The position numbers and the translations under genes are program-made. Below the pieces are notes generated by a model. The model was given only the letters and a program-made list of their open reading frames with translations. It searched no databases and was not told the origin of the DNA. 64,000 nt of DNA from a virus (taxonomy: Duplodnaviria; Caudoviricetes). Where the stretch lies: the IMG/VR virus record IMGVR_UViG_2834443690_000002, positions 1 to 64,000 of that record. One strand, written 5' to 3'. Below, piece by piece: positions 27,601 through 63,467 of the stretch. Numbering within the stretch: the stretch's first letter is position 1; every line of letters starts with the position of its first letter.

Positions 27601-27954
27601 TTAAATGTCGATCGGAATGGCACCGGCAACAAGATTTCTTCCCCTGCCCCTGGATCGGCTTTCTTCCTGAGCGATTTCCTTTTCGAGATATTTAATCATC
27701 TCGGCGACTTCCTGTAAATTTGCCCTAGTAATCGTCTTTTTCGCTAAGGCATAGCTTTGAGCCCCGTTTAAAATCGAATCCTCACACTGAAGATATTCAG
27801 CGAGCCGATTATTCAGAGTTTCTAATCTTGTTGCCGTAGTAATCACTCCTTTTTTACAAATCAATGCCTCTTGAAACAACACCGTAACGCCTTTTTTTCG
27901 GCGTGTTGTTGGCAATATTACTAGGCTTTTGAGGGCTGTTATCGGTCGTTTCAC
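27601..27954 (-). CDS. Head completion protein (gpW-like); real start probably near 27845
   Basis: GAQSY...TRANL between terminase and portal. Confidence 0.7.
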   Translation of the reverse strand: MKRPITALKSLVILPTTRRKKGVTVLFQEALICKKGVITTATRLETLNNRLAEYLQCEDSILNGAQSYALAKKTITRANLQEVAEMIKYLEKEIAQEESRSRGRGRNLVAGAIPIDI

Positions 27955-41787: not shown

Positions 41788-42111
41788 GTGGGAATTAGTG
41801 AAAATATTAAGGCCCTACGCGAAAAATATGGACTTACACAACAGGATCTAGCTGAGATAGCTGGTGTATCAAATAAGGCGGTATCAGCTTGGGAAACAGG
41901 TCAGAAAGAGCCCCGCATGGGAGCAATTGAAAAAATAGCTAATCACTTCAAGATTAGAAAGAGTAACTTAATTGAAGAAGATGGATTAGCAGAATCCGAA
42001 ACAGATCTGCCAAAGACGATCGCAGCGCATTTTGAGGGGGATGATTATACACAAGAAGAACTACAGGAAATTTTAGAATATGCAAAATACATCAAGTCAA
42101 AGCGGAAATGA
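41788..42111 (+). CDS. CI/ImmR-like repressor
   Basis: XRE HTH LTQQDLAEIAGVS..AVSAWE; IAAH cleavage-type motif. Confidence 0.9.
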   Translation: MGISENIKALREKYGLTQQDLAEIAGVSNKAVSAWETGQKEPRMGAIEKIANHFKIRKSNLIEEDGLAESETDLPKTIAAHFEGDDYTQEELQEILEYAKYIKSKRK

Positions 42112-42595
42112 GAGTGATGTCGGTTTGGTTTTGTCTAATTCATTATTGATAGAAGTAGAAAAACGAGGAATAAGTATTGAGGAACATTGTTTTAAAACAA
42201 AAAAGCTTAAGGGGCTCTATGTAGATAATGTAATCATTCTTAATCCGGCAAATATCAAGAATAGCGCAGAAAGACGTTGCGTTTTATGCGAAGAACTTGG
42301 ACATTATGAAACAACTGATGGCAACATCCTAGACTTATCAGATATTCGAAATCGAAAACAGGAAAAACGTGCACGAAATTGGGCATACGAAAAACTAATA
42401 CCTCTCCAGAGCATTGTGGAAGCTTCCAAAGAGGGAGTTTGCAACAGATATGAACTCGCAGAATTTTTAGATGTTACAGAGGACTTCCTGGACGAGGCAA
42501 TAAAGCATTACAGAGAGAAATATGGACTTTATTCGGAATGGGAAAGCTTCATAATATATTTTGATCCGTTAGGGGTACTTGAGACTTACAACTAG
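42080..42595 (+). CDS. ImmA/IrrE-family metallopeptidase (antirepressor)
   Basis: LKGLY, EELGH, QEKRAR.WA. Confidence 0.88.
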   Translation: MQNTSSQSGNESDVGLVLSNSLLIEVEKRGISIEEHCFKTKKLKGLYVDNVIILNPANIKNSAERRCVLCEELGHYETTDGNILDLSDIRNRKQEKRARNWAYEKLIPLQSIVEASKEGVCNRYELAEFLDVTEDFLDEAIKHYREKYGLYSEWESFIIYFDPLGVLETYN

Positions 42596-42644: not shown

Positions 42645-42678
42645 GAACGTATGTTTCTAATAATGGGAACCTACATTC
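42645..42678 (+). promoter_or_regulatory. LexA-box-like sites upstream of integrase
   Basis: GAAC-GTAT-GTTT(C) at 42645 and GAAC-CTAC-ATTC at 42667. Confidence 0.55.
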
Positions 42679-42695
42679 GAAAGGAGATAACTCAG

Positions 42696-44045
42696 ATGGC
42701 CCATGCAGAATTCAAGGGGATAGGAACCAAAGGGCAGGCTAAATTTCGCCTCTATTTCGACGGCCCCAAAAAAGCCGATGGCAGACGAAACCAGAAGAAG
42801 GAATCCTATTCCATCGACCCCCTACCCGAGAAAGCCGGCGCTATTGCTAATGCTGCAAAGAATAGGCAAAAAGGCATTGCAACTAAAACTGAAAACCTCC
42901 TATTAGAGCGATTCGAGAAAAAAGCTACTGAATCAGCTGAGACTGAAGCAAAGAAAAGAGAAGATGAAATTAATAAACCGAACTATGTTGAACCGGTTGT
43001 AAACAAAGAACACTTTGTGAATCATTCTGCTCGTTGGCTGAAATATAAAGCTGGCACTGCACGCAAGGGAAAGCGTCAGCCTAAGACCGTCTGGAGATAT
43101 GAGCAACTACTTCAGCGTATCGATGATTTTTTTCAGAGCGATTTTGTTGAAGACATAAACATTGATAGGGTTGAGGAGTTCTATGCTTGGTTAGCAAGGC
43201 AACCCAAAAAAAGGGGGAAAAATCAAAAGAAAGATCCCGAAGGTTTTCTCTCGGAACGGACGCAGTGGCATTATCACCGCTGTCTCTATTACATCTTAGA
43301 GTATGCTGTCGCTCGTGAAAAGTTAGCCTCTAACCCTTGTCGCCATGTCAGACCACAAGAAATACCTGATGATCTAGACGAAAAAAGGCCAGACTCTTAC
43401 ACGGCTGACGAGGCAGCCAAAATACGCGAATTAATGGAGAAGGAACCTCTAAAGAATAGAGTTTTTGTACAGATCGCCCTAGAGATTGGACCACGCCCAG
43501 AAGAAATACATGCCCTCAAGTGGGTAGATATTGATTTCAAAAACCGGCTTATAGACTTTAATAAAACGTGGCAATATATCCCCAAAAAAGGATCTTTTGA
43601 AAAGCCGCATTTAAAAAACAAATCTAGTCGCCGTAAAATTAAGGTATCGGCGAGCACCACATTTCTTCTGAAGCAACTAAAAAATGAGCAGGAAGTCGAA
43701 GCAAAGAAAGCAGGTAGCAAATGGGTCAATAGCGGTGCTTTATTTGTAAATTGGCAAGGGAAACAACTATCTGCCACTTGGGCCGGTGACTGGTGGAGGA
43801 AGTGGATACTTACAACAGATCTGCCAGTTAAAACTTTATATTGCCTGCGCCATACGTGTCTTAGTCTTCTTCTTGATGCTGGAGCAAACCCACTCGAGGT
43901 AGCCCGTATGGCAGGACACTCTAACGCAGAAATGCTCTGGAGGGTTTACGGGCACGCCGTAGAAAAAGAACATTTTGCCGGTGCAGATATCATGGAGTCA
44001 ATCATGAAGAAGAAACAAAAAGAACCTTCTCCGCAACTAAGTTAA
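42696..44045 (+). CDS. int: Prophage tyrosine integrase
   Basis: GPRPEE (R), YCLRHT, AGHS, VY.H; AAGGAG RBS before ATG 42696. Confidence 0.92.
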   Translation: MAHAEFKGIGTKGQAKFRLYFDGPKKADGRRNQKKESYSIDPLPEKAGAIANAAKNRQKGIATKTENLLLERFEKKATESAETEAKKREDEINKPNYVEPVVNKEHFVNHSARWLKYKAGTARKGKRQPKTVWRYEQLLQRIDDFFQSDFVEDINIDRVEEFYAWLARQPKKRGKNQKKDPEGFLSERTQWHYHRCLYYILEYAVAREKLASNPCRHVRPQEIPDDLDEKRPDSYTADEAAKIRELMEKEPLKNRVFVQIALEIGPRPEEIHALKWVDIDFKNRLIDFNKTWQYIPKKGSFEKPHLKNKSSRRKIKVSASTTFLLKQLKNEQEVEAKKAGSKWVNSGALFVNWQGKQLSATWAGDWWRKWILTTDLPVKTLYCLRHTCLSLLLDAGANPLEVARMAGHSNAEMLWRVYGHAVEKEHFAGADIMESIMKKKQKEPSPQLS

Positions 44046-44181: not shown

Positions 44182-44229
44182 GGTCTCCAAAACCGTCAGT
44201 GAGGGTTCGACTCCTTCATCCCCTGCCAA
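44182..44229 (+). repeat. att core: 3' half of tRNA-Trp(CCA), copy 1
   Basis: GGTCTCCAAAACCGTCAGTGAGGGTTCGACTCCTTCATCCCCTGCCAA; anticodon loop, T-arm and CCA present, 5' half absent. Confidence 0.92.
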
Positions 44230-44368: not shown

Positions 44369-45361
44369 ATGGTTAGACAACGATTAACGGTCAAGGACAA
44401 CAACGGTTTTAAACCGTCTGTTATTCGTGACCGACGTGAGCAGACCGTCCTATCAACACAAGATTTCCTAGAATTACACGGCAAGTTCATCCAGCACAAA
44501 GCCTTAGAAGGTCTGGCTCCACGGACTCTAAAGGACCATCTTACCCATATGGGGTACTTCAAAAAATTTCTCTTTGAAGACCAACGGTTTAGTCTAGACC
44601 GTTATATTGACGTGGACGTGTTTCGAGGGTATTTAAGCCATATGATTTCCGATAAGAGTCTAAAACCATGCACAATTAACATTAGATTACGGACCCTAAA
44701 ATGTTTTTTGAAATGGTTGTTCGATGAAGATTATATCGATTTTAACTACTCCCTAAAATTAAAACTAGTTAAAACCCCCGAAGACACTATTAAGCCTCTT
44801 TCCGATTCGGACACCCGTAAAATGTTAAAAGCCCCAGACAGAAGTACGTATTCAGGCTTGAGAGACTTTTGCCTAATGGTTCTAATGTTAGACTGTGGAA
44901 TCAGAATCGGTGAGGCCGTAAAATTAACGGTCAACGATGTTGATACAAGGCTTGGTTTAATTAATGTACGTCCTGAAAATGCCAAAACACGAGTTTATCG
45001 GCAATTGCCCATAAGCCAAAAGACTTGTAAACTCTTGATCGAGTTAATCAAGATTGCCCAAGATAATGACTCAGAGTACGTTTTTCAATCCACTTTTGGT
45101 GGGATGGTGAGCAAGGATAACATTATTGCTTATTTTGAAAAGTATGGCAAGAAAGCCGGGGTCAAGGTTCGGTGTACCCCTCACATTTTTAGACATACTT
45201 TTGCAACAAACTTCGTCAGGTCAGGTGGGGATATCTTTACACTACAAAAAATACTAGGACACTCCACCCTTGTAATGTGCCGTAAATATATTCAACTAGA
45301 TAACTCAGACTTAGTTCGGAAACATCACCAAGCTAATCCATTAGATAAATATATTCAATAA
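44369..45361 (+). CDS. Tyrosine recombinase/integrase (XerD-like)
   Basis: GIRIGE, K, HIFRH, LGH, Y. Confidence 0.93.
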   Translation: MVRQRLTVKDNNGFKPSVIRDRREQTVLSTQDFLELHGKFIQHKALEGLAPRTLKDHLTHMGYFKKFLFEDQRFSLDRYIDVDVFRGYLSHMISDKSLKPCTINIRLRTLKCFLKWLFDEDYIDFNYSLKLKLVKTPEDTIKPLSDSDTRKMLKAPDRSTYSGLRDFCLMVLMLDCGIRIGEAVKLTVNDVDTRLGLINVRPENAKTRVYRQLPISQKTCKLLIELIKIAQDNDSEYVFQSTFGGMVSKDNIIAYFEKYGKKAGVKVRCTPHIFRHTFATNFVRSGGDIFTLQKILGHSTLVMCRKYIQLDNSDLVRKHHQANPLDKYIQ

Positions 45362-45736
45362 TGAGCTATAAGAAGTGAGACACTCACCTTACTTTTGTCG
45401 AATTAAACTGTGTAATCGTTACGGAAATAAACCCCACCGACCCTACCCAACCAAAACAACATCCAAGAGGTAGAGGTAAAACCAACCAAGATCCTCCAAT
45501 CTACCTACGTAAGGTGTCATATTCAAGTGGTGGCTAATTCCAGACATTAATTAACTCGTCTACACCATACAGTTACTTTACTTTAGGAAATCAAGAAAGC
45601 AGTCGATAACTGGGTACAATCTTCCCATGTCGGCTGCTCTAATGATCTCGGTTTAAAATTAAAACTGAACAGTATTAATTAACAATTTGTCCCCCTTTTA
45701 GCTAAGATTTTTATGACATTGGCAATTTGAGTAAAT

Positions 45737-47668
45737 TTACTCCAATAGTTTATTAACGTCTTTAAAAAATTTTTCAAATCGTTCTAATGTAATTTCTAGA
45801 TCCGGCCATTCAATTTCCGGGTGTTCCACTAGGTAAACAGATGGTTGAAAATGATCAAACTCTGGAACTTCTGGGGGCAACGTCCCAAAGTATTCTTCCA
45901 CCTTCTTAACAATCCTCATCGACTTGCATTCACTTTTTGCTGCATTAAATTCACACCCGCCTTCCAATTTATAACAATGGTTGATAAGGCTACTATAAAA
46001 ATTTATACCTATTAAATCCTCTACGTCAGCCTCTGATTGTCCTGCATACATTTCGGCAGAAAAGACATGTCCCTGCCTTAATAATTCTGACTCTCTTAAA
46101 CTCCTAATCTTCTTTTTATCCCCTTCTGCATAATCAGTTAGAACTGCTACATGTAATTTATTCCCACCAAAAAGAGCCACGAAACTAGAAATTTTATCCA
46201 CACCACCAGCTGGAGCAACTGTCCACCTAGGGTCAAGTCCTTCTCTATTTCTTTTCTTCAATTGAGTAGTAAACCATCTTATGTAAAGGAGGTCTGAAGG
46301 TCCCTCAACTAATAATGTATTTTTTCCAACAAATAATGTTTGGGTTATATCATAACCTAAGGCAGCCTGTAATGGGAATATAGTATCAGAATCGGTTGCA
46401 AGTACATGATCCCCAACTTTAGTTCCAAGAACTTCCCCCTCAATCGAAGAAAGATCCTCGACTGTTCTAACACTTAGTATGTTTTCTGCATCTATCATAA
46501 ATGGAGAATGAGTTGTATAAATAACCTGATACTTTGGTAGGAGCTTTTCCTTAATAAATCGAAGTAAATCACTCTGTGCTTTGGCATGTAAATTTAGACC
46601 AGGTTCATCTAATAGCAATAAAAGGTTATCTCCGTAAACATTTTGAATGTGTGAAAACCATGCCAAAAATGAAAAGAACCAAATGAATCCTGAACTTCGT
46701 TCATCGAAATTGACAGATACTTCATGACGTTTATTGTAAATACGAGTCCTTAAAATATTACCTGTATTAAATGGTGGTGGATCATTTGGTCTTCCAACAT
46801 CGAATCTAATTTGAACAGACAGATCCTTGTTTTGACTCCAATACTCGAAGATTTGTTTAGATATACGATTTGAAGTAGACTCAAGCTTTGCAATCAATCG
46901 TTCAGCTTTAGTTGCTGAAGAAAATGTTTCTGGTGTAACCCCTGCAAGATATAAGAGAGCAACAAAGGTCTTTTCTTGGGTGTTCAATTGGTTTTGACTA
47001 CGTTTCTGAATAAATTGTTCATATTGGACTTGTCCAGGAAGAGTTTGATATTGGGAAAAATATAGAATTTTAGGAATGTACTCTATAAGTAACTTATTTG
47101 CAACTTCACTAACGGACCGATCAGGAAATATCTTAATCAGCATTTGGAATAACTTGTCCTGTTCGTCGTTTCTTCCTTGTATCTGTTCCAAATGGTTAAT
47201 TAAGGCTTTTACATCTTCAAAATTGCCATCAACAGGCATCTCTTCAATGCCACATTGTTCTAAATAGTAGTTTATTACAGACTGCTGATTTATTTCTATC
47301 TTAAGGATATATTCATTGTCATAACCTTTTAATATTACTATTGTAGGGCTCAACAGTGAACCTCTACCCAATACCTGTTCGATTTGTTCAACCTCTTTGT
47401 CCGTCAATTCCCATTGTGTATTAAGCACGTTTGAACGATCTACAAGTAATCCTTCTTCAAACTCCGACAGGAACCTTCTCGGATACTCTTCAATATCAAA
47501 TTTGTCCTGACTTAAATCTACAGGATTTAGTTTATACAAGGCTTCTAATAGACTACTTTTTCCAGATTCGTTCTTCCCCACAAGACAAGTGACGGGTTCA
47601 ATTGTAAATTCTCCAGAATCCTCAATGCACTTGTAGTTTTCAATACGTAATGTTTTAAGAATCACCAA
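45737..47668 (-). CDS. OLD-family ABC ATPase-TOPRIM nuclease
   Basis: GKNESGKS, RSSG, LLLDEP..LH, TTHSP, LLVEGPSD, LTD, EDL. Confidence 0.88.
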   Translation of the reverse strand: MVILKTLRIENYKCIEDSGEFTIEPVTCLVGKNESGKSSLLEALYKLNPVDLSQDKFDIEEYPRRFLSEFEEGLLVDRSNVLNTQWELTDKEVEQIEQVLGRGSLLSPTIVILKGYDNEYILKIEINQQSVINYYLEQCGIEEMPVDGNFEDVKALINHLEQIQGRNDEQDKLFQMLIKIFPDRSVSEVANKLLIEYIPKILYFSQYQTLPGQVQYEQFIQKRSQNQLNTQEKTFVALLYLAGVTPETFSSATKAERLIAKLESTSNRISKQIFEYWSQNKDLSVQIRFDVGRPNDPPPFNTGNILRTRIYNKRHEVSVNFDERSSGFIWFFSFLAWFSHIQNVYGDNLLLLLDEPGLNLHAKAQSDLLRFIKEKLLPKYQVIYTTHSPFMIDAENILSVRTVEDLSSIEGEVLGTKVGDHVLATDSDTIFPLQAALGYDITQTLFVGKNTLLVEGPSDLLYIRWFTTQLKKRNREGLDPRWTVAPAGGVDKISSFVALFGGNKLHVAVLTDYAEGDKKKIRSLRESELLRQGHVFSAEMYAGQSEADVEDLIGINFYSSLINHCYKLEGGCEFNAAKSECKSMRIVKKVEEYFGTLPPEVPEFDHFQPSVYLVEHPEIEWPDLEITLERFEKFFKDVNKLLE

Positions 47669-47847
47669 AATCCCCCCTTAATCCGGTCAATATAATGGCA
47701 TAATTCTCTATTTTACATTAAATACCTCTATAAATTTTTAAATATATTCGTAGTAATTGATTTAAACGATGAAATTCACTTGACGTAATGTAAGAGATGT
47801 TTTATGAATGCAAAATTCTCGTAAGAACGGGTAAGGATTAACAATAT

Positions 47848-47991
47848 CGTACCGTAAGGTGTACCTTTTGATACGGAAATCAATCTTTCAAGAATCTAGT
47901 CATATCAGCATTTCGGAAACGTCAATTACGTAGCAAAAGGTTCTAAAGTAAATTATGGTACGTATCATTATCTTTATTGACCTTTTGATAC
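47848..47991. promoter_or_regulatory. res site (three inverted-repeat subsites) of the serine resolvase
   Basis: CGTACCGTAAGG-TGTA-CCTTTTGATACG; CGTAGCAAAAGG...TATGGTACG; CGTATCA...CCTTTTGATAC. Confidence 0.75.
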
Positions 47992-48037
47992 ATCAATGAT
48001 ACTATTGGATCAGATAAGTGTATTGGAGGTCTTGACA

Positions 48038-48673
48038 ATGAACGGTGCAAACAAAATCTATGGATATGCCAGAGTATCGACTAAAGAGCAGAATTTGGAC
48101 AGGCAGATTGCAGAGTTGATGAAATATGTAGCCAACGAAAGGGACATCATTACAGACAAGGCCAGTGGTAAAAACTTTAACCGTTCAGGTTATATGATAC
48201 TTAGAGAAACACTACTTAGGCCAGGAGATACACTCGTTATTAAGGAGCTTGATCGGCTGGGCAGAGATATGTGCATGATAAAAGAAGAATGGAACACCTT
48301 GATCAAAATGGGGGTTGATATTATCGTTATAGATACCCCCATGCTGAACACTAACGGCAAGGACACTCTTGAAAAGACTTTGATTAGCAATATCGTGTTT
48401 GAGCTTTTGTCGTATATGGCACAGAAGGAACGAGACAAGATTAGATCTAGGCAAGCAGAAGGCATAGCAGCCTTAAGGGCAAGGAACAATGGCAAGGGCA
48501 TTGGCAGACCTGTGATTATTGAACTCTCGAACAGGTTTACAGAGGTTTACAATCAATGGAAGGCAGAAGAGATTACAGCAGTAAAAGCAATGGAACTATG
48601 TGGACTAAGTAAGGCAACGTTCTACAGAAAAGTAAAAGAGTATGAAGCTCAGCAAGCAAAAAAGCAGGGGTAG
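48038..48673 (+). CDS. Small serine recombinase (resolvase/invertase)
   Basis: YGYARVST..Q, LDRLGR, GRP, C-terminal HTH; GGAGG RBS. Confidence 0.93.
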   Translation: MNGANKIYGYARVSTKEQNLDRQIAELMKYVANERDIITDKASGKNFNRSGYMILRETLLRPGDTLVIKELDRLGRDMCMIKEEWNTLIKMGVDIIVIDTPMLNTNGKDTLEKTLISNIVFELLSYMAQKERDKIRSRQAEGIAALRARNNGKGIGRPVIIELSNRFTEVYNQWKAEEITAVKAMELCGLSKATFYRKVKEYEAQQAKKQG

Positions 48674-49294
48674 TACCTGCTTTCTCTAATACATAAAGAC
48701 TTTTTAGTCCACTGCCCATATCGAGAAATCCAACGTTCAATTTACCACTTCACAAAAACAATGGACGTTTACGAAAGTGAAGCCACCGTGGGTAAAATCA
48801 TGGGGGTACGTCAAATTGCCTGTGCCTAGTGTAACGACTAAATACACCACATATCTAATATTCTCAATCAGACGGTCCTATCCATTATAATTACTGCCCT
48901 TACCACCAACAAGGCTACCCTATCTGTACAATCCTAGTTGTTAAAAGTGGATATGTAAGATTTTTCATATTTTTTTGTTTAAAAACTCCGGCCCCCCTGG
49001 CTGATAGAACAGTTCTTCCACGACTCACTCACCTATAAAGTCACTTCCGGGCAAACATGCACAATTTTCTTGGGGTGGCTTTTTGGACAAATGGGTCTAT
49101 GGTTAACTAAGCAGCTATCGATAAGGCATTCTCCCCTGATGGGGAATGTCTTTTTCAATTAAAGGGATGCCACCGTCAGTATAGAAATGCCCCCCACACT
49201 ATTTCCCAATAAAAGAAAAAACCTATGTCGATTCTAAATGTACAACCTCGTTGGTATCCATCGTTATATCACATGCCACCCGTTTTAGAACATC

Positions 49295-49930
49295 TTAATA
49301 TTCAATGTCGTCAAACACAACGGGAATTACTTCTTTAAATTTATCCAGCAGTGGTCTTGCAATTTGTCTTATTTGAGGGTGGGCACTTAGTGTTGTTCTT
49401 AATCTGAAAAAATGTCTCCATTCCCTAAGGTTCATAGTCATAACAATTTCGGTCTTAAGACTATTAGGCAATATACTTCGAGCCTGCTGTGGTTCTGCCC
49501 CGAGTTTAATCAGTTCGAAATAATTCTTCTCAATAGTTTCCATTGTGGACTTCCATATTAAGTATTTTTCTTTGCTCTGTTTGCTATCATCCTCCCAGAA
49601 ATAAGGTTTGATAAAGGTAAGTTCATTGTTAAATCTATCTTTACTATAATTACAATATCTTGTGCTCTCTTGACTGTAACTTGCAATCCTGTGCCTAACG
49701 ATCTCATGACTGACTCCACGGTCACAGACAACTCTTACTGTTATTTTCTCATGTTCTAGAACAGATTCATGTCCACTCGTTATAATTTTCTTGACGAAAT
49801 TCATTGCTGTCACTTCCGAAATTTGGTCCTCACTTTTATAGCAGGTCCTCCCTGCTCGTTCCACTTTTTTAATTAATTCCATTCCATTTATTTGTTCCTC
49901 TAACGTACTGGATGGCTCGATTATTTTCAC
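49295..49930 (-). CDS. thyX: FAD-dependent thymidylate synthase
   Basis: GHESVLEH, RHRIASYSQESTRY (RHRx7S), AR..LP, F.LR...AH..IR. Confidence 0.95.
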   Translation of the reverse strand: MKIIEPSSTLEEQINGMELIKKVERAGRTCYKSEDQISEVTAMNFVKKIITSGHESVLEHEKITVRVVCDRGVSHEIVRHRIASYSQESTRYCNYSKDRFNNELTFIKPYFWEDDSKQSKEKYLIWKSTMETIEKNYFELIKLGAEPQQARSILPNSLKTEIVMTMNLREWRHFFRLRTTLSAHPQIRQIARPLLDKFKEVIPVVFDDIEY

Positions 49931-49942
49931 AAATATTCCTCC

Positions 49943-51604
49943 TTAAGAAATCGGCTTGTTCATATAAAGGTTTATTCCATGTTTTTTGAAAATGCAATTG
50001 TCACCTTTATTACAAATTTCAACGTCTATTTCTTTATTTAATACAACTAATTTCTTCTTTAAATTTGAATCTAGGCATGAAGTTGAACAAAATATTTTCT
50101 CCCTATAAAAAATAGAGAATATCTCGGTAATATCCTCATCCTTTACCGAGTAGACCTTTTTAAGATCTTCGATTGTATTATTTAAAGTATTCCCAGTTAC
50201 TATTACATCAGTAATTAATATAATACTCATATCCTTAGGTATTTCCAAATTTGTTTCATGTTTACTATGATAGGCCTTATATCTCTCTGGTATTATGTAA
50301 GAAAAAGGGTTACCTGTCATAAATCCAATATATGAAGCCATCCGTAACCCATTAATGTCTATACCCAGTAAATAGCAATTATTACCTTGAATCCTATTAA
50401 TAAATTTACTGGTAATCGAATCAAAATATAATGGATTCGTTAACAATTTTGGAACATCAATCCAATCTCTTGCACAGTTATTACCATCTATTTCCCAATG
50501 CCCACTTTGAATCAATCTATCAGTTATAACCCATTGTGTTATAGTTTTTTGAAATTCGTCATCTAATAGTCTAACTTCATCTGAATTAGTAAAAGAGTCT
50601 GAGACACCATCTACTACTTCGGAACCCCCCCGTTCTTCTTCACTAGCTGTCTTATTCATATTATTATGTTCAATTAATGGATTTAATGGTCTATCCTTAC
50701 TTTGAATCTTCTCTAGCAATTCACCAGTTGCTTGAATTTTTATTGTATTGAAATTCCATCCTAATAGAAAGTCTGGAAAGTAGTAGACTATTTTCTTATT
50801 AAAATCATCTAACTCATTCATAATCTTATCTCGGACTTCAATTAATAAGTCCACATCTGTTTCAAAGTTCCCTTCACTCGTAATTGTTGATTCACGGGGT
50901 AACAATAATATTACATGAGGATCATTTGGATCTATTTTAGGCATATGAAGGATATCACACTTTCTCCAGTGAGGTTCAGATTTTTCCTCCTTCATGTAAC
51001 CTTTATGTTCAATTAGGACTCTGTTCGAATTAATATCTAACTCATCAGCTAATCTTAGAAGCCCAGATAAAACTCTTACGTTTATAGGTTCATGCATCTT
51101 TCCTGGAACAAATTGTTCTTTTGTGGGTAACATATCCATTGTCTTCTGTCCGTTCTGATTTTTTATGTCACTATGGCCAAAAATAACAAAACCAATACTA
51201 TCTGCCTCATCAGGGGTTAAAACCATAGACAAAGCAGAATTAAATTCCTTAACGGTATCAATAACATATTTCATTCCAGCCTGGCTGTGTTCAGGACGTT
51301 TCAATGGATTGTAGGTCATCATTATGTCGTGCAAAATTACTGCTACATCTAAGATAAATAAGTGTTCAGTATTAATTGAACGATAAGAAGAATCAGGGAT
51401 TAACCAGCTTAAAATATTATAGATGTTTACACAATGTCCTGAATAATCATGTGGAGTCATTGTTACTCCTTCTTCTTGTATTAACGGCCCTTTATCTAAT
51501 TTGGGGGCATAAACATCTCGGACTATTTTCCACCTGTGAAAATAATCTCCTGTCTCCTTAAGTTTAGAAATACATTTATAACTCACTTCAATAGGTTCTT
51601 GCAT
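49943..51604 (-). CDS. HD phosphohydrolase fused to type I phosphoribosyltransferase domain
   Basis: TPHD...H, ILHDI, H, GH, LRLADELD; then SGH...WID, GIDING, ILITDVIVTGNT. Confidence 0.8.
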   Translation of the reverse strand: MQEPIEVSYKCISKLKETGDYFHRWKIVRDVYAPKLDKGPLIQEEGVTMTPHDYSGHCVNIYNILSWLIPDSSYRSINTEHLFILDVAVILHDIMMTYNPLKRPEHSQAGMKYVIDTVKEFNSALSMVLTPDEADSIGFVIFGHSDIKNQNGQKTMDMLPTKEQFVPGKMHEPINVRVLSGLLRLADELDINSNRVLIEHKGYMKEEKSEPHWRKCDILHMPKIDPNDPHVILLLPRESTITSEGNFETDVDLLIEVRDKIMNELDDFNKKIVYYFPDFLLGWNFNTIKIQATGELLEKIQSKDRPLNPLIEHNNMNKTASEEERGGSEVVDGVSDSFTNSDEVRLLDDEFQKTITQWVITDRLIQSGHWEIDGNNCARDWIDVPKLLTNPLYFDSITSKFINRIQGNNCYLLGIDINGLRMASYIGFMTGNPFSYIIPERYKAYHSKHETNLEIPKDMSIILITDVIVTGNTLNNTIEDLKKVYSVKDEDITEIFSIFYREKIFCSTSCLDSNLKKKLVVLNKEIDVEICNKGDNCIFKKHGINLYMNKPIS

Positions 51605-51606
51605 TG

Positions 51607-52593
51607 TTACCCCTCACCAGCTTCAATATGTTCTCTTTTTTCAAAGTAAACCTCATAGCTAAGATTACAATCTGTATTAATATCTATTAAAGAAAAAACT
51701 TTATGCTTATTTTCACGATCTTCAAATCTATATTTAGCCACTCCAACAGCCCCGACGAGATCTGCATCTTTAGTATTTACGACAGTTTTAGTTATTTTAA
51801 ACTCCGTGCCTAAGCAAATAAAATCATATATAAAAAGGTATCTTTTTTTGGGTATAATACTATTCAATAATTCTTTATCCCTAATAGTCAGATGAGGTCC
51901 CAGATTCATTAAATACAGAACATCTTTATTTAATATCTTTCCAATAATTGTCGATAAAGCAGATCCGTTATTACTTGAACTAACCAAAGCATCAAATCGT
52001 TTATTAAAGTGAGTTACTACAAGGTTACATAATTCATAGATTATTAGACTGTACATCTTTCGATTGTTAAATATCTTTTTTATATCTACATACATGTTGC
52101 TATAAACACTTGAAGATTCTAAAAATTGTTCTTCCATAATAACAATTTCTTTAACATAAAGCCCAATTATCTTTTTTTTATAATCTATTATATATTCTTG
52201 ATAGTTACCAATTGAATCAATAAATTCAATTCCTATGTGATTTGAAAGAGCAGTTTTCGTTTTATCATAAATTACTAGCCCATAACAATCAGCATTATGA
52301 ATGAAGTTCGATATTCTATTGTTAAGATTAACAAAAATAATAGTCTTTTCAGTACTGCTTAAAATATCTGCAAATATTTCAAAGACCCTCGATTCAGTCA
52401 TTTTGATTCTACAAAAATCCAAAAAGTAATACTTTGCTTTAGTTTTGCTGACTTCTTCAAAGATACTTTCTACAAGTGAAAGGTTGACATAATCTTTTTC
52501 AAAGTTTATTTCACCCTGAAAGAAAATTGTATTTAAATGCAAAGGTATGTAAATGCAATTATTAGAAAAACCGTAAGATAATAACATTTTCAC
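51607..52593 (-). CDS. STAS-like domain fused to type I PRTase-like domain
   Basis: YFLDFCRIKMTES; ESSSVYSNMYVDIK, SSSNNG, LFIYDFICLGTE. Confidence 0.7.
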   Translation of the reverse strand: MKMLLSYGFSNNCIYIPLHLNTIFFQGEINFEKDYVNLSLVESIFEEVSKTKAKYYFLDFCRIKMTESRVFEIFADILSSTEKTIIFVNLNNRISNFIHNADCYGLVIYDKTKTALSNHIGIEFIDSIGNYQEYIIDYKKKIIGLYVKEIVIMEEQFLESSSVYSNMYVDIKKIFNNRKMYSLIIYELCNLVVTHFNKRFDALVSSSNNGSALSTIIGKILNKDVLYLMNLGPHLTIRDKELLNSIIPKKRYLFIYDFICLGTEFKITKTVVNTKDADLVGAVGVAKYRFEDRENKHKVFSLIDINTDCNLSYEVYFEKREHIEAGEG

Positions 52594-53606
52594 TCATCCA
52601 TTCTTAAAGGTATTTCTATTTCTAAATGGCAGCCCTTTAAACGACTCTCATTTTTCCTAAAAGGAGAAAATTGCATATCTGATTTTTTATTTGCTAATTT
52701 AATATAATCGAGATATTCATCCAATTCATTTGGATTATTAATATATCTTAAAAATGTATTCTTTGTAAATATTAATTGAGTATCCTCGGAATGGACTCTA
52801 ATAACTCCATCTTGTTCAAAGACGTATTTAAACACTTGAAAAATACCATATTCATCATTTTTCTTTCTATAAAAAATGGCTTCTAAAATACCAAATAAAT
52901 TTTTATGTTTGTCAATATCTAACAAAGTATATTGTGATTTAGAGATGAAATTCAACTCATTAATTTTAGAAAGCTGTTTTAGAATTGAATTATAATACCC
53001 TATACCATAATCACTAATGGAAATGTATGCTTTCTTATGCTTTATATTACTGCCTATATTAGACTGGAAGGTTGATATGCATCTACTTCCACTATGAATA
53101 CAGGCATTGCAGCAAATTTCTGTAAGAGTATTTAGTAAATCATCTAGAGTGTTCTCGGAATACTTTTCTTCGATAAGTAGTTTAATAGATTTATTAAGAG
53201 TATATCTAATATCCCCTTTAGTTGCCCCCGGTTCGAAAATAAATGTCTTGCAAGCATGATTAATCTTTCCTGACTCATAACCACCAATTAATCTTTCATC
53301 TAAATTAAAAATCTTATATTTTCGTACTATTGCAAAGAAGCCTATATCATCTAAGTAAGATAGTAGTTCTGGCTTCCAAGGAATGTATAGCTCCACAGGC
53401 TTTACAAAATATTCTTTCAGTATGAATCCTACTGCAATAATATTAGGGATCACCAATGGATTAATGAAATTTACGTTGGAAAAATCCAGAAGGAGACTTT
53501 TTGATAATTTCCTTTCAAAATAAATGTGTAGTTGTGGTAGAATTTTACTATAGAAACTATAAGAAGTAACGTTTTCATCAAAATCAACAAGATAATATTC
53601 TTCCAT
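52590..53606 (-). CDS. STAS-like domain fused to GHKL/HATPase (RsbW-like kinase)
   Basis: LLLDFSNVNFINP; N-box EICCNACIHS, G1 ISDYGIG, EYGI, KGCHLEIEIP; no HisKA H-box seen. Confidence 0.78.
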   Translation of the reverse strand: MEEYYLVDFDENVTSYSFYSKILPQLHIYFERKLSKSLLLDFSNVNFINPLVIPNIIAVGFILKEYFVKPVELYIPWKPELLSYLDDIGFFAIVRKYKIFNLDERLIGGYESGKINHACKTFIFEPGATKGDIRYTLNKSIKLLIEEKYSENTLDDLLNTLTEICCNACIHSGSRCISTFQSNIGSNIKHKKAYISISDYGIGYYNSILKQLSKINELNFISKSQYTLLDIDKHKNLFGILEAIFYRKKNDEYGIFQVFKYVFEQDGVIRVHSEDTQLIFTKNTFLRYINNPNELDEYLDYIKLANKKSDMQFSPFRKNESRLKGCHLEIEIPLRMDE

Positions 53607-54080
53607 TAAAACACCCTTTTCAAAAATACACTTATTATGGCTATTCTTCTTTTAATTGAAAAAATCCTGCCAGTTAAAGAAGAACATTCCAGGAAAACAA
53701 TAAAATGTGACATAGGCACCCCTTCCTAAGAAACACTCCCTATGCCATATTGCCTATACTTGATGCAGGGAACCCACGTTCACTAATGTTTAGATACGAC
53801 TCTTCTCGATCTTGTTGGAAGTGCAGGCTTCACTTGTACTATGAACGTATATAGAGCCACCCCTTTGAGGTTATTTCGAACGTTGAAAGGTGGGGTTCTG
53901 TAATTTCTAAAAATACTTTGGCTTAGAATCTGCCAAATCCCACGGCAGTCCTACATTTCATTTGCTCCCCAGCAGAAAAACTAGTCACCTCCTAGCACTG
54001 TTAGCTTGAGGGTGACTTGAAGTATTTTATGACATATCAAGAACTTCTTGAAACTCAGCAGAAGAAAAGTTCCTGATGCA

Positions 54081-54932
54081 TTATATTTCTGACAATCGTC
54101 TTGACACTCTCTCAAATTCAAAAACAATGTTCCACGGTTCAAAATGAGTTAGTTTAGATGTGAGCTGTATAGTACTGTTAATTTTAATATAAAGTGAATT
54201 AATATCTTCATAAGAATAATTATCCACATCTTTATATTCTATTTTTATATCAAAGAGTTTAAATCTACCATTTACAGCATAATTATTATTAATGGGGTTT
54301 TTCATTTCAATATTCTTCTTGTAGCAATACAAAAGATTGCATAAGAATCCTTCCAACCAAGGTTCTGGTGGTGGTAATATTACATTATCTCCCTGTTTTA
54401 TAAGACTCTTTTTAAAGTAATCCTTATTATCTTTAGAATATGAATTGTATATGTTATTGTAATCTTCTTCACTTACTTTTAGCAATTTTACACTATTCAA
54501 GAAATCTTCTAAATTAGTTATTGATACTTTTAAATTTAATGCAGGGTATAACCCAACATTGTTCAATTCTAATGAAAAACTCTTTTCAGCTTCATTAACA
54601 TCGTCATCAGTTTTACAATCCTTATCAAGGAAATAATTACAAATACCAAATAAATTCAAATAATAGTAAGTCGAAAAGTCATTAAAATAAAGAAGTGGTC
54701 TATGATCTTCTTTAACTCTAATAATTGTGAAGTATATAGTTATTAACGTTGCTAATCCACCAATTGCTCCTCCAAAATAGCCAGTTAATGATTGAAACAT
54801 TGATGGATTATCACCAGCCGATGGTATGAAGTTAGTAATCAATACTAGAAAATTTAATATAAAGGGTAAAATAATTATTACCCCCAAAAAAATAAAGATC
54901 ATATTTTTAAATCTTTTATCCATTCCATCCAA
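54081..54932 (-). CDS. Two-TM membrane protein
   Basis: TM, GYFGGAIGGLATL helix, N.G..PA motif. Confidence 0.6.
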   Translation of the reverse strand: MDGMDKRFKNMIFIFLGVIIILPFILNFLVLITNFIPSAGDNPSMFQSLTGYFGGAIGGLATLITIYFTIIRVKEDHRPLLYFNDFSTYYYLNLFGICNYFLDKDCKTDDDVNEAEKSFSLELNNVGLYPALNLKVSITNLEDFLNSVKLLKVSEEDYNNIYNSYSKDNKDYFKKSLIKQGDNVILPPPEPWLEGFLCNLLYCYKKNIEMKNPINNNYAVNGRFKLFDIKIEYKDVDNYSYEDINSLYIKINSTIQLTSKLTHFEPWNIVFEFERVSRRLSEI

Positions 54933-55115
54933 TTGCAGCCCCCCCTCATCGAATGTTCATGTTTATTCTTAAACATTCCACATGTTTCCAATAATTCCTT
55001 CTTATAATAAAAAGAGCCGGTACGATCACGTATGATCCACCCTGGCTCTTTAGTTTTATCTTTATATGGGTCCGATGTCACGATTAAAATGATTGCAACC
55101 TAAAATATTTCATAT

Positions 55116-55763
55116 CTAGTTTACCTTATAAACCCATTTCGTTTGTGAATACTTTTCTTTTAACTGCTCAAGATCAAAGTCCAATGACATCTCATTTCCC
55201 AAATCCTTTATGACTCCCCATAAACCATTTTTATTGTCGGGGAATCCACTCATATAACTGTTAAATGGAATATTAGTTAGCATTTGAGCAGTGGGGTCTA
55301 ACCCTTCAAATTTTATTCCATAAATCCCTTTTGTTTGTTCTTTCGTGTCAATATCATACCCTTTAATAACTGGGGCAAACATCATTCCATAATCAAGGTT
55401 TTTATAAACAGATACATCAAATATTTTATCCTCAACCTCAACCCAAGAATGATCAAAAAAGCCTCGATCACCCCTAACTTCACCTACACAAAGAGTGGGA
55501 CTAAGTCCTATCTCACTTAGCAGCACATATAATACTGATGACACTGCATGACAAGCCCCTGCCCAATTTTTCCTTTCAATATATTCCAGTGTGGTGAAAA
55601 AAACTGCTAGAATGGAATCCCTTTGTGGTTCATTAGCCAAAATCTCTAAGGCATTAACCTTCCATGTTGCAAACTTGTCTGACTCTGGCTTGTTCAGACA
55701 ACAATGTTTGTATTTTTTGCCACTTCCACACGGGCAAGATTCATTTCTTCCAACGTTGCTCAT
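55116..55763 (-). CDS. SEC-C motif plus transglutaminase-like domain
   Basis: GRNESCPCGSGKKYKHCC; GACH, HSWVE, FD triad. Confidence 0.75.
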   Translation of the reverse strand: MSNVGRNESCPCGSGKKYKHCCLNKPESDKFATWKVNALEILANEPQRDSILAVFFTTLEYIERKNWAGACHAVSSVLYVLLSEIGLSPTLCVGEVRGDRGFFDHSWVEVEDKIFDVSVYKNLDYGMMFAPVIKGYDIDTKEQTKGIYGIKFEGLDPTAQMLTNIPFNSYMSGFPDNKNGLWGVIKDLGNEMSLDFDLEQLKEKYSQTKWVYKVN

Positions 55764-56041
55764 TCAATTCTCACCTTCAATCACAATTTAATATGTAAGA
55801 CATTCTTTTCACTAAACTTACATATTCAACATAAGCCTACATAAACCTGCAAATAATCAGGGATTTAGGATGTTAATATGACGTAAAAAAGATGCCCGTG
55901 ATCGGACATCTAGCAAATAAATACTTCTACTTTGATTTTCCGTCCTAACAAGACACTCTATCAATACTATTGTCACTTATAATGACGTAAAAACCTTTTA
56001 GCTACTTCTACTTGACTCGTTAGAACTACGAGGTTACCTAG

Positions 56042-56542
56042 TCAATTAGAACTTGGCCAAGGCAGTTCTATTGTTGGATCAAAGCATAACTCATCATAGA
56101 TACCGTCAAATCTTAGTACATGGTTACCCTGGAAGTGGCTGGTTCTCTGTTTACTCATAAGATCACTAAAATAATCCGGTTTAAAATTATGTTTATTGCA
56201 GAATGACCAGGACTCATACGTGTTAGCACACTCAACCATGATACCTTCAAATCCTTTTTTAGCTCCGTAATCTTTAAGGATATTCAGAATCAAAGTTCCC
56301 TGGCCCACCCTTTGGTTCCTAAGAGAAATGGTGGAAATAATGAGATATCGAGAGTCCCTTTTGAGATATATTTCCGACCCAATATCCCCCTGAAAAAAAA
56401 CATCTTTACCATATGGAGTCTCTGTTATTACGGGTACTTTCCCTGAATCGTTTTGAATTATTGTTTTAATCTCTTGTAATTCGTCAGGGCTGATCTTAAT
56501 CTTTTTTGTTTCCCTACAACGTATTCTCAAATCCTCTTTCAC
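56042..56542 (-). CDS. GNAT-like acetyltransferase
   Basis: QRVGQGT motif A; ...N..S..F..K..F. Confidence 0.55.
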   Translation of the reverse strand: MKEDLRIRCRETKKIKISPDELQEIKTIIQNDSGKVPVITETPYGKDVFFQGDIGSEIYLKRDSRYLIISTISLRNQRVGQGTLILNILKDYGAKKGFEGIMVECANTYESWSFCNKHNFKPDYFSDLMSKQRTSHFQGNHVLRFDGIYDELCFDPTIELPWPSSN

Positions 56543-56619
56543 CGTTCAGAACCTCACTTTATATTACTTCTTTTTTGTAAATAGGCTTGCTTATATATCA
56601 CAAGCCCCTTTGCAATTGA

Positions 56620-57261
56620 TCATGAATGGAAGACTTCATTTTCGGGCACTTGCTCTACCTCCAATATTGTCTCTACCAATTCAGTTAATCTATTTACTTC
56701 CTCAACGTCTTCAGCATCAATTAGCCAATAAATGGAGAAGAACTCCTTAACTTTGCTGATAGACATATAGTTATAACCAAACCCCATTGATACAGACGTG
56801 TCAATATCATATATATTTGAAATTTCTTCATAGTCAAGTTCTTTGGTGTATCTAATACCATTTTCCACTAAGTAAATTCTAAATCTCTCACCGAAAGTCC
56901 CTGGTCTAAGAAGATCTTCCTTATAGAAATGAACAAATTGCTTATAAAGTTTTTGAAGTTGCCCAGGTTCGAAGGCTTTAAACTTATAGAACCTAGTGAT
57001 CTCTACATTTCTAAGCCTTTTCTCATTTTTCTGAGTAGGTTCTGAATCGGATACTTTCACGACATTGCTTAGAGTATATATTTTTGCAGTCTTTTCCACT
57101 TTAGCACCGATCAACTCTTTATCACCGGCTAAAGCAATATTTTCCTTATTCATCTGGTCAATTAGGGACGAAGCAAACTCAATAACCTTATAAAGCTGTC
57201 GTGTAGACATCGAATTGGCAATAATGTTAAGTTTGTCCCGAAGTTCATCCTCAGATGTCAT
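56620..57261 (-). CDS. Hypothetical protein
   Basis: 213-aa ORF with GGAGG RBS. Confidence 0.55.
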   Translation of the reverse strand: MTSEDELRDKLNIIANSMSTRQLYKVIEFASSLIDQMNKENIALAGDKELIGAKVEKTAKIYTLSNVVKVSDSEPTQKNEKRLRNVEITRFYKFKAFEPGQLQKLYKQFVHFYKEDLLRPGTFGERFRIYLVENGIRYTKELDYEEISNIYDIDTSVSMGFGYNYMSISKVKEFFSIYWLIDAEDVEEVNRLTELVETILEVEQVPENEVFHS

Positions 57262-57286
57262 CTAATAACCTCCCAATAATAGCAAA

Positions 57287-57514
57287 TTAACGGTCGTTCT
57301 GTTCTGCATGAGCCGTCAATTCTTCTGCAACGACCTTAACGTCCTTGGATACATGCTCAATCAGTATTGTCAGCTTGTCCACTTTCTGATCTAAGCCCTC
57401 AACTTTCTGGTCTAAACTACCCAACTTCTGATTTACCTCGACTATATCAGCCTTGATGCCATCTAATTCTCCCAACTTTGACAAAACTAATCTTTGAAAT
57501 TCCCCGTTATCCAT
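57287..57514 (-). CDS. Short heptad-repeat coiled-coil protein
   Basis: LDQKVEGLDQKVDKL; GGAGG RBS before MDNGE. Confidence 0.55.
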   Translation of the reverse strand: MDNGEFQRLVLSKLGELDGIKADIVEVNQKLGSLDQKVEGLDQKVDKLTILIEHVSKDVKVVAEELTAHAEQNDR

Positions 57515-57700
57515 TAGGTTTCCTCCCATTATGCTCTTACAGGCATACAACCCTATATGATCACAAAGTTACAAGACACTTCTTCTTAACTTGAGTCCCA
57601 TAAGAATTTTCACCTACTGTTGAATCGAGACGGCCTATTCAATTTCGGCAATAAGTTTGAAAACCCTTCTCAAGTTGCATCAAATTACCAATTGGGAATA

Positions 57701-58185
57701 AGTGGATTTCAGCTCGTTTTTGTGTAATTAGATTGTGAAGGGGGAACTAACGATGACGGAAAAGAGAAATATTTCAACATTGGGCAATCTCAAAATAATG
57801 CCTAGTATTCGTAGGAATTGCTGTGCAGGTTCTGGATAGATTATTTCTTGCTCACCTTCATACTTTAACGAAGCACTAATTAATCTGCCTAAAACTACCA
57901 ATCAAAAAAGAGTGAATTTCGGGTCGTATTACACCAATTAACCAATGAAAGGATTAATTGACCTTGTTGATTGTGTTTCACCATTAATTACCAAGAGGAA
58001 ATGAGTGAATTTCGAACCGTTTCCCACCAATTAACTTATGAAGGGGTAATTAAACAATGATAAAAGGAGAATTCCATATGACAAAGAAAGAACGTGCTTC
58101 CCCTACAACTAAAACGTCCCCAAAAGTGTTATGTATTCCAAGTGAATTTTGGCCTAATATTGTTTAATTAACTTACGAGAGGGTT
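57701..58185 (+). repeat. Four imperfect 45-bp promoter-like direct repeats
   Basis: AGTGRATTT-N16-AATTA-N6-GARRGG aligned without gaps at 57701, 57911, 58004, 58141. Confidence 0.7.
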
Positions 58186-58505: not shown

Positions 58506-59288
58506 ATGAAAGTAATGAATAACTTAAAAAACACCAACAACGTGGAACAAATCTTCAACTTTATGGGGACTTCAATCAGAGTAGTCATGATCGATGGTGA
58601 ACCGTGGTTCGTGGCAAAGGACGTTTGTGACATTTTGGAGATTGGAAACCCTACTATGGCACTCCGTAGACTTAACCCTAACGAGAAGAATACCCTCAAT
58701 CTGATTGAGGGAAATAAGAAAGGCAATCCAAAAAAGAACGTTGTCAATGAGCCGGGACTGTACTCTTTAATAAGCAGAAGTGATAAACCAGAGGCAAAAG
58801 CATTTCAACATTGGGTAAACCATGAAGTGTTACCTAGCATTCGTAAAACTGGTGGGTACGTTGCTAATGACGATCTATTTATAGAGACTTACTTTCCATT
58901 TGCCGATGATCAAACTAAATCATTGTTCCGTGACACACTGGAAACAATCCGAAAGCAGAACAATGAAATTGCTATGATGCAACCCAAAGCTATTTTCTAC
59001 GATGCCCTTGTTGATCGGGGATTGCTCACAAACTTCCGTGATACTGCCAAAGAGTTGAAGATCGGGCAGAAAGAATTTATCAATTGGTTGATCGACAACG
59101 GATATGTTTATCGTGATGGTCGTGGAAAACTAAAGCCCTACAAACAGCATGTGCCAAAACTGTTTGAGATAAAGGAACCAAGTATGGATGATTGGCAAGG
59201 AGTCCAAACATTGATAACACCTATAGGTAAGAAGGTATTCTTCGAAAAGTTAACTAACACTGACACTGGCTCCACAAAAACAAAATAA
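58506..59288 (+). CDS. BRO-N / KilA-C (ANT) antirepressor
   Basis: GEPWFVAKDVC, NEPGLY, VLPSIRKTGGY, PKAIFYD, TP.GK. Confidence 0.9.
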   Translation: MKVMNNLKNTNNVEQIFNFMGTSIRVVMIDGEPWFVAKDVCDILEIGNPTMALRRLNPNEKNTLNLIEGNKKGNPKKNVVNEPGLYSLISRSDKPEAKAFQHWVNHEVLPSIRKTGGYVANDDLFIETYFPFADDQTKSLFRDTLETIRKQNNEIAMMQPKAIFYDALVDRGLLTNFRDTAKELKIGQKEFINWLIDNGYVYRDGRGKLKPYKQHVPKLFEIKEPSMDDWQGVQTLITPIGKKVFFEKLTNTDTGSTKTK

Positions 59289-63419: not shown

Positions 63420-63467
63420 GGTCTCCAAAACCGTCAGTGAGGGTTCGACTCCTTCATCCCCTGCCAA
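63420..63467 (+). repeat. att core: 3' half of tRNA-Trp(CCA), copy 2
   Basis: Identical to 44182-44229. Confidence 0.92.

Follow-up and report, generated by a model that had tools for sequence, protein, structure and literature searches.

What function could be served by a thymidylate synthase gene that closes an operon of predicted regulatory and nucleotide-directed proteins on a mobile element? This question is raised by a locus in the IMG/VR virus record IMGVR_UViG_2834443690_000002 (Duplodnaviria; Caudoviricetes), of which positions 1 to 64,000 were analysed (hereafter, the window). The operon, comprising four minus-strand genes designated g1 to g4, occupies positions 49295–53606 of the window, and a preliminary description made from the sequence alone had proposed that it encodes a nucleotide-manipulating defence system gated by a partner-switching kinase. 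Herein, g1, g2 and g3 are found to form a real, conserved, horizontally mobile and uncharacterised cassette. The fourth gene, encoding the flavin-dependent thymidylate synthase ThyX, was probably recruited by this cassette once and, judging from its sequence, is co-inherited with it, catalytically intact by motif and dispensable.

Conservation and mobility of the cassette

Open reading frame (ORF) calling reproduced the four co-oriented genes, their coordinates and their spacings. The first gene, g1 (52590–53606, 338 amino acids), encodes a STAS-like domain and a GHKL domain of the SpoIIAB/RsbW type ('K' component) and overlaps by 4 bp with g2 (51607–52593, 328 amino acids), the product of which carries a STAS-like domain and an orotate phosphoribosyltransferase (OPRT)-fold domain and is a putative adaptor or sensor ('S' component). 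Following a gap of 2 bp, g3 (49943–51604, 553 amino acids) encodes the candidate effector, composed of an HD-CE domain, a variable linker, an OPRT/PyrR-like phosphoribosyltransferase (PRTase) domain and a C-terminal cysteine motif. A further 12 bp separate it from the ThyX gene g4 (49295–49930, 211 amino acids). The operon is AT-rich, as had been noted, with a GC content of 30.9% against 39.2% for the window and 46.1% for the host's own thyX locus. On the same strand, the 474-bp intergenic region upstream of g1 (53607–54080) is the likely promoter region and contains a sigma-70-like site at 53662–53634. Promoter and terminator scans returned no more sites than expected from shuffled sequence, and Rfam gave no match in 40000–64000, this intergenic region included.

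A motif-seeded scan covering a single genome of each species identified 35 loci with g3 relatives, to which a metagenome scan added 61. In 17 of the 35 genome loci, as in the window, g1, g2 and g3 are colinear. Clustering of all flanking ORFs revealed no other family widely common to the loci, and the flanks differ at every one of them. Since the three genes keep the same order amid unrelated flanks, they constitute a self-contained mobile cassette. Its carriers span the Bacillota and the Bacteroidales and include metagenome-assembled genomes and isolates titled Thermincola, Lachnospiraceae, Oscillibacter, Cellulosilyticum and Bacteroidales. In addition, a profile search of 1.84 billion representative sequences placed 398 clusters in the g2 family at E ≤ 1e-10, which makes the family uncommon though not tiny. 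No g3 relatives occurred in the IMG/VR viral contigs scanned, tblastn with g3 matched none of 72,556 plasmid records, tblastn with g1 matched none of 50,697 phage records, and a megablast search of 45000–58000 against the phage records was likewise without a match.

Domain architecture of the encoded proteins

The domain assignments proposed earlier for all four products were upheld by fold and profile evidence. The g1 product gave a sub-threshold match to HATPase_c_2 in Pfam (E = 0.037) and a match to PHROG 3364 (2.5e-12). Its N-box and G1 box are invariant in a 31-sequence alignment (N167, H171 and D199xG201xG203), as is F90, and the Pfam scan returned no HisKA match, in agreement with the earlier view of GHKL boxes lacking a His-phosphotransfer domain. 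The AlphaFold2 (AF2) model of g1 is confident, with a predicted local distance difference test score (pLDDT) of 88.4 and a predicted template modelling score of 0.89, and Foldseek related it to CheA P4 (probability 0.99), to SpoIIAB (1tid_C, 0.97; 1l0o_A, 0.96) and to a 98-residue chain of the RsbV/RsbW entry 6m36 (0.94). Because the invariant boxes, the model and the structural matches coincide, g1 is assigned a STAS-like domain joined to an anti-sigma-kinase-type GHKL domain.

An OPRT-like PRTase had been recognised in g2, and the structural evidence agrees. The AF2 model reaches a pLDDT of 91.2, its C-terminal two thirds match OPRT, APRT, XPRT and PurR at a Foldseek probability of 1.00, and the family profile retrieves OPRT (4paw) from the PDB at 1.6e-4. 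At the N-terminus, an LDF...F motif and an alpha/beta domain in the model fit a STAS fold, and hhalign of this region against the N-terminus of g1 returned a probability of 4%. In canonical type I PRTases, the loop that binds phosphoribosyl pyrophosphate (PRPP) consists of four hydrophobic and two acidic residues followed by xxTGxT. The loop of g2, YDFICLGTE, departs from this motif in having one acidic residue and in replacing the two threonines with cysteine and glutamate. It had been described as degenerate; it is instead a variant, DFxCxGxE, that is close to invariant across the family (D257 in 159/159 members, C260 in 153/159, G262 in 157/159 and E264 in 159/159). Such near-invariance points to a constrained ligand pocket.

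The g3 product matches HD-CE (PF24391) at 3.3e-16, with 60.2 bits against a gathering threshold of 27, and Pribosyltran at 2e-6, with 27.7 bits against a cut-off of 26.3. Among 31 relatives, H52, H57, H92, D93, H106, H144, D187 and D190 are invariant, so that the complete H..HD..H..D metal site reported earlier is confirmed, and T465, D466 and T473 are nearly so. The second PRTase domain postulated for the operon also holds, as its profile retrieves OPRT (1.8e-7) and PyrR (about 1e-4) from the PDB. Its PRPP loop, ILITDVIVTGNT, bears a T-D pair in place of the two acidic residues, and the PRTase-like domains of g2 and g3 are homologous to one another (hhalign E = 7.8e-5).

Variants of g3 were also encountered. 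Two proteins (L006 and L007; 811 or 829 amino acids) carry a C-terminal radical S-adenosylmethionine (radical-SAM) domain with weak matches to Cfr/RlmN C-methylases and SPL-like families (E-values of 1e-3 to 1e-7, far below the cut-offs); these matches allowed no subfamily assignment. At other loci g3 is present as two ORFs split at the linker between HD-CE and PRTase, representing either a natural two-gene form or frameshifts (L004, 7947–9409; L009, 2586–4216; L010, 7983–9580; also L062, L070, L074–L076 and L078).

Outside the cassette, HD-CE is found at the N-terminus of GHKL-ATPase fusions in 6 of the 9 proteins scanned, so that HD-CE and GHKL form a recurrent pair. These HD-CE–HATPase_c_3 fusions, of 876–929 amino acids, come from Bacteroidota genomes and two metagenome contigs (L020, L021, L022, L032, L098 and L102). 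One other protein combines HD-CE with TPR (L101), and one further protein (L094) shows weak, sub-cut-off TIR-like and nucleoside deoxyribosyltransferase-like matches.

ThyX as a co-inherited fourth gene

The g4 product was correctly recognised as an intact ThyX. It exceeds the cut-offs of both Pfam Thy1 (1.9e-54; 184.8 bits against 24.8) and TIGR02170 (154.2 bits against 87.9), the motif RHRxxSxxxxSxR is complete, and all 15 sequences compared share R79, H80, R81, S84, S89, R91, R151 and R178. The window's genome has its own thyX on another contig, which makes g4 a second copy. Cassette ThyX proteins are 59–72% identical between loci and 32% identical to the host's own enzyme.

The association of thyX with the cassette was tallied over 36 loci having g2 and an uninterrupted g3 ORF of 500 amino acids or more, two of which lie on contigs that end too early. 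Among the 34 assessable loci, ThyX directly follows g3 in 22, a radical-SAM domain is fused to g3 in two, and no fourth module is present in ten (two identical sequences among them), 'none' here meaning no tblastn match within the downstream flank fetched. The loci with split g3, which stand outside this tally, all carry ThyX. In two distant loci (L013 and L018) the g3 and thyX genes overlap by 4 bp.

Phylogenetic evidence argues that the linkage is inherited. In the ThyX tree, 23 of 24 cassette proteins fall in one clade of 25 (Shimodaira–Hasegawa-like approximate likelihood ratio test, 90), and cassette labels clustered as tightly in none of 500 shuffles. Furthermore, loci that are alike in g3 tend to be alike in ThyX (Mantel r = 0.83 between pairwise identities, equalled in 0 of 2000 permutations) and the ThyX sub-clades mirror the g3 tree, with median identities of 66% for ThyX and 27% for g3. 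The presence of ThyX is scattered over the g3 tree, requiring at least eight state changes, and the 'none' state accounts for at least six on well-supported branches; this scatter indicates repeated loss. The four-gene composition first proposed thus stands insofar as thyX is conserved beside, and co-inherited with, homologues of g1 to g3; it does not stand as a fixed set, since thyX is dispensable, has been lost repeatedly and is replaced by a radical-SAM fusion at two loci. Two stand-alone ThyX genes (L038, 4241–4855; L114, 1501–2115), with no g1 to g3 in the flanks fetched, nest in the cassette clade and may be remnants of lost cassettes.

In all eight ThyX-bearing genomes checked, the cassette enzyme is an extra thymidylate synthase: the genomes of the window and of L001 have their own ThyX, that of L010 has a second ThyX-family match, and four others have ThyA. 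The genome of L005, which lacks a cassette ThyX, has ThyX only. The idea that ThyX-less cassettes reside in hosts already using ThyX was dropped, as one of four such hosts is ThyX-only and three are ThyA-only. The ThyX subtype itself is ordinary, given that 18 of its 20 best matches (52–64% identity) in a 401-genome phylum sample have no g3 in their flanks.

Downstream of ThyX-less cassettes no common family was found, the genes there encoding a GNAT protein, a LytTR regulator, a histidine kinase, a dGTPase-like HD protein and a glycosyltransferase. The dGTPase-like protein (HD plus HD_assoc) lies directly downstream of its cassette (L072, 7888–9294). At another locus (L081, 9643–11466), four ORFs of 94 amino acids recur at an exact spacing of 513 nt as a tandem gene or repeat array. 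A 279-amino-acid gene occupying the ThyX position in L011 had no match in PDB, Pfam or NCBIfam and gave a sub-threshold Abi_alpha lead in Atlas.

Relation to known defence systems

Searches of PADLOC-DB v2.0.0 returned no match for g1, g2 or g3 at E ≤ 1; the only match for g4, Cas10c at 0.0019, was rejected as spurious. No paper describing the gene set was found in the full-text literature, although the supplementary datasets of related papers could list kindred operons. The preliminary claim that no characterised system has this composition therefore holds for the gene set, but not for the underlying logic of a STAS-GHKL protein, a STAS adaptor and a toxin, which was published in 2026 (PMC13373217).

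According to the relevant passages of that report (Chambers et al., EMBO J 2026; PMC13373217), CapK is an HTH-STAS-GHKL protein activated by single-stranded DNA that phosphorylates an absolutely conserved serine of the STAS protein CapS, and the anti-phage toxin-antitoxin module VapKSC unites a PIN toxin with a STAS-GHKL kinase and a STAS adaptor. Marks of this type of module are kinase activation by single-stranded DNA via a conserved aromatic residue and an adaptor that binds and neutralises the toxin encoded after it. Measured against this published domain description, the cassette resembles VapKSC and CapKS in its first gene, which by fold evidence also joins STAS to an anti-sigma-kinase-type GHKL domain. 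The second gene of VapKSC opens with a STAS domain followed by an effector-facing C-terminal part, to which g2 has a candidate counterpart in its STAS-like N-terminus and OPRT-fold domain. As in VapKSC, the toxic enzyme comes third (g3 here by prediction), and the system is mobile and located near other immune genes. In contrast to what is described for VapKSC, the adaptor of the cassette has a full OPRT-fold C-terminal domain with an invariant pocket, its candidate effector is an HD-CE plus PRTase protein in place of a PIN nuclease, and a ThyX gene is added. The cassette is best filed as a variant of STAS-GHKL-regulated toxin/defence systems with an unprecedented ThyX association.

The SpoIIAB–SpoIIAA and RsbW–RsbV pairs share with the cassette the GHKL fold, the ExxxNAxxH N-box and a STAS partner gene adjoining the kinase gene. 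They differ from it in that the cassette lacks a sigma-factor target, has STAS fused to the kinase itself and does not conserve the phospho-serine.

PRTase effectors have been reported in two further systems: that of Retron-Eco11 (type III-A3) is described as depleting PRPP (PMC12746101), and that of ShosTA, ShosT, as disturbing purine metabolism (PMC11961720). In common with these accounts, g3 is a type I PRTase-fold protein predicted to act on nucleotide metabolism, and the T-D pair is shared by the PRPP loops of g3 (ILITDVIVTGNT) and Eco11 (VVILTDTIGSGNQ). Relative to both systems as described, the cassette has no reverse transcriptase, DprA-like domain (Pfam/NCBIfam), non-coding RNA (Rfam, 40000–64000) or ShosA-like partner, and its PRTase is OPRT/PyrR-like, fused to HD-CE and predicted to be under STAS/GHKL regulation.

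A thymidylate-synthase-domain defence system of E. coli was validated by DefensePredictor (Science 2026, PMC13092281); the likeness lies in a thymidylate-synthase-type enzyme within an anti-phage operon, validated there and predicted for the cassette. The legends of that paper list dNMP-kinase, 5-hmdU-kinase and NMAD domains among its validated systems, and its relevant passages name no STAS, GHKL or HD domain and mention PRTase only for a different validated set (Fig. 4 legend). Finally, the uncharacterised HD-CE plus HATPase_c_3 proteins of Bacteroidota (~900 amino acids) couple the same HD-CE family to a GHKL ATPase. Unlike the cassette, each is one polypeptide, its GHKL domain is of the MORC/Hsp90 type, and no PRTase, STAS or ThyX was seen in it.

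The neighbourhood of the cassette fits a conflict role. Among 145 flanking ORFs from 18 loci, integrases (5), Mob_Pre (3), IS66 and TnpV were found together with the defence-type genes GajA (best 3e-162), GajB, OLD and Schlafen-AlbA_2. These flank genes, a repeat-bounded element in the window and the OLD nuclease within it (both detailed below) bear out the earlier picture of a mobile element with defence neighbours.

Proposed mechanism and alternative explanations

On present evidence, with a probability of roughly one half, the cassette is a mobile K-S-effector conflict module, either anti-phage or toxin-antitoxin-like, that would follow the VapKSC logic with a pyrimidine- or PRPP-directed effector and ThyX as an accessory. 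In such a module, g1 would act as an ATP-dependent switch and may be a kinase in serine-bearing lineages such as that of the window. The g2 product would be an adaptor or sensor that restrains the effector, and a plausible means is the pairing of the paralogous PRTase-like domains of g2 and g3. Once released by a putative trigger, g3 would attack the pyrimidine-nucleotide or PRPP pool and stop the replication of an invader; alternatively, nucleic acid is possibly the target of its HD domain. ThyX would most likely serve as a metabolic buffer of thymidylate (dTMP) supply when the effector is leaky or after it has fired.

A more specific version is tentative and somewhat less probable than even. 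Here, an HD-OPRT effector, gated by a STAS-GHKL switch together with a STAS-pseudo-OPRT sensor, would collapse or rewire the pyrimidine/PRPP pool. ThyX or the radical-SAM domain would either make the true product of the effector, a modified pyrimidine nucleotide, or act as an inbuilt metabolic antidote against thymineless death. The cassette would then be the first immune or toxin-antitoxin system with its own co-evolving ThyX.

Several observations weigh against the conflict-module reading, foremost in its regulatory part. The preliminary description had pointed to a phosphorylatable serine in the MTES stretch of g2, and Ser68 is indeed present in the window copy; across the family, however, serine occupies this STAS phospho-site, which lies where helix 2 begins, in only 46/159 members, aspartate or glutamate in 27/159 and other residues in the rest, so the conserved Ser/Thr that is described as defining CapS and VapS (PMC13373217) is not a feature of the g2 family. 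The N-box glutamate of g1 is replaced by glutamine in 4 of 16 members. Given these two substitutions, classical partner-switching phosphorylation cannot be the general mechanism; of the kinase gate first envisaged, the STAS-GHKL/STAS-like gene pair stands and a universal phospho-switch does not. The match of the g2 profile to the anti-sigma antagonist 1sbo is weak (E = 5.4e-3), and g1 is likened to CapK and VapK by published domain description rather than by sequence alignment.

On the effector side, phenylalanine, tyrosine or alanine takes the place of the loop glycine in several g3 relatives, and the aromatic substitutions render PRTase catalysis uncertain. The defence-gene counts in the flanks lack a control set. 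Lastly, a buffering role for ThyX leaves the radical-SAM fusions of L006 and L007 unexplained and is not needed in the ten ThyX-less loci, one of which is in a ThyA-only host.

The alternative that survives best, though unlikely, is that the cassette makes a modified pyrimidine nucleotide or nucleoside by a small biosynthetic pathway, the product serving as a signal, antimetabolite or chain terminator. In this pathway, the PRTase would join a base to PRPP, ThyX or the radical-SAM domain would modify the base, the HD domain would trim phosphates, and g1 and g2 would regulate. Both PRTase domains are nearest to OPRT and PyrR, giving a pyrimidine theme in common with ThyX, and an enzyme takes the fourth position in either variant, translationally coupled to g3 where the genes overlap by 4 bp and physically fused to it in L006 and L007. 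Moreover, nucleoside-like signals made by PRTases and phosphoesterases have been predicted in Ter systems (Anantharaman et al. 2012, as summarised in PMC7824862). What lowers its standing is that the cassette ThyX is canonical, with all motif residues and with ordinary stand-alone enzymes, 18/20 lacking g3, as nearest relatives; that ten loci have no fourth enzyme; and that the radical-SAM assignment stays weak and below the cut-offs.

A further alternative, to which we give a little less weight again, holds that g1 to g3 are the system and that ThyX is a hitch-hiker with a benefit of its own, such as reduced DHFR dependence, and no functional tie to its neighbours. Its dispensability, with the 'none' state arising through at least six changes on well-supported branches of the g3 tree, and the two stand-alone genes nested within the cassette clade would suit such a passenger. 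Its constant place directly after g3, the 4-bp overlaps in distant phyla, the co-divergence of the two proteins over deep divergence and the fusion of another enzyme domain at the same position in two loci speak for a closer tie.

A nucleotide-supply module with which the integrative element or a satellite raises or rebalances thymidine triphosphate for its own replication, free of any immune role, is improbable: ThyX is a common phage auxiliary gene (matched in 2020 phage records) and the element encodes an integrase, a Bro-N/ANT antirepressor and a weak helicase-like match, but no g3 relative turned up in the scanned IMG/VR contigs or in the 72,556 plasmid records, g1 has no tblastn match in the 50,697 phage records, g1 to g3 evolve fast (median g3 identity 27%) in a manner unlike housekeeping-type metabolic enzymes, both the HD-CE domain and the pairing of STAS with GHKL are typical of conflict systems, and the flanks differ at each locus.

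Genomic setting of the cassette in the window

Two copies of a perfect 48-nt direct repeat on the plus strand (44182–44229 and 63420–63467) enclose a 19.2-kb element that contains the operon. The repeat resembles the 3' half of a tRNA and is attachment site (att)-like; its Rfam tRNA score is 21.6 bits against a gathering threshold of 29. A third copy of 47–48 nt, with two mismatches, is located ~16 kb to the right of the window (L134, about 1501–1547), and the three copies suggest an array of integrative elements at one tRNA-derived att site. ARAGORN detected no tRNA genes in the window, and at none of the three repeats did ARAGORN or Rfam reveal an intact tRNA. The original description of a tRNA-integrated element is therefore only partly right: it is supported by the tRNA-3'-half-like repeats and the adjacent integrase, and not by an intact tRNA.

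Just inside the left repeat, the element encodes a tyrosine integrase on the plus strand (44369–45361; Pfam Phage_integrase, 1.1e-35). It is followed on the minus strand by an OLD-family ATPase-TOPRIM nuclease (45737–47668; AAA_15, 2.7e-25; OLD-like_TOPRIM, 3e-6), which verifies the OLD nuclease ascribed to the same element. The remainder comprises a resolvase, the operon, several unknown genes and the Bro-N/ANT antirepressor gene (58506–59288). Two further genes gave weak matches, one helicase-like (ResIII, E = 0.0055) and the other sigma-factor-like (E about 0.007–0.009), all below the cut-offs. Between the operon and the antirepressor region, a 215-amino-acid protein (55116–55763) combines an N-terminal SEC-C motif with a transglutaminase-like core. 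Three 60-nt repeats, 63–75% identical, are located upstream of the Bro-N/ANT gene (57683–58045) and may serve the element as operators or iterons.

To the left, a tailed prophage (~9000–44045) abuts the left repeat. Its genes include those for a GpA-type large terminase (27854–29785), a replication protein O (34115–34915), an SMC-like ATPase (37874–39841), a helix-turn-helix/IrrE-M78 pair (41788–42595) and an integrase of 464 amino acids (42651–44045).

Biological implications

If the cassette is a defence system, the regulatory logic of STAS-GHKL and STAS proteins would extend to a nucleotide-directed effector, and the known PRTase effectors that deprive phages of precursors would gain HD-CE plus OPRT-like enzymes as members. 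In that case, ThyX would be a housekeeping-type enzyme co-evolving inside an immune operon, whether as a metabolic antidote or as a means of making a modified nucleotide. The natural three-gene and four-gene variants provide a ready-made comparison for the contribution of ThyX.

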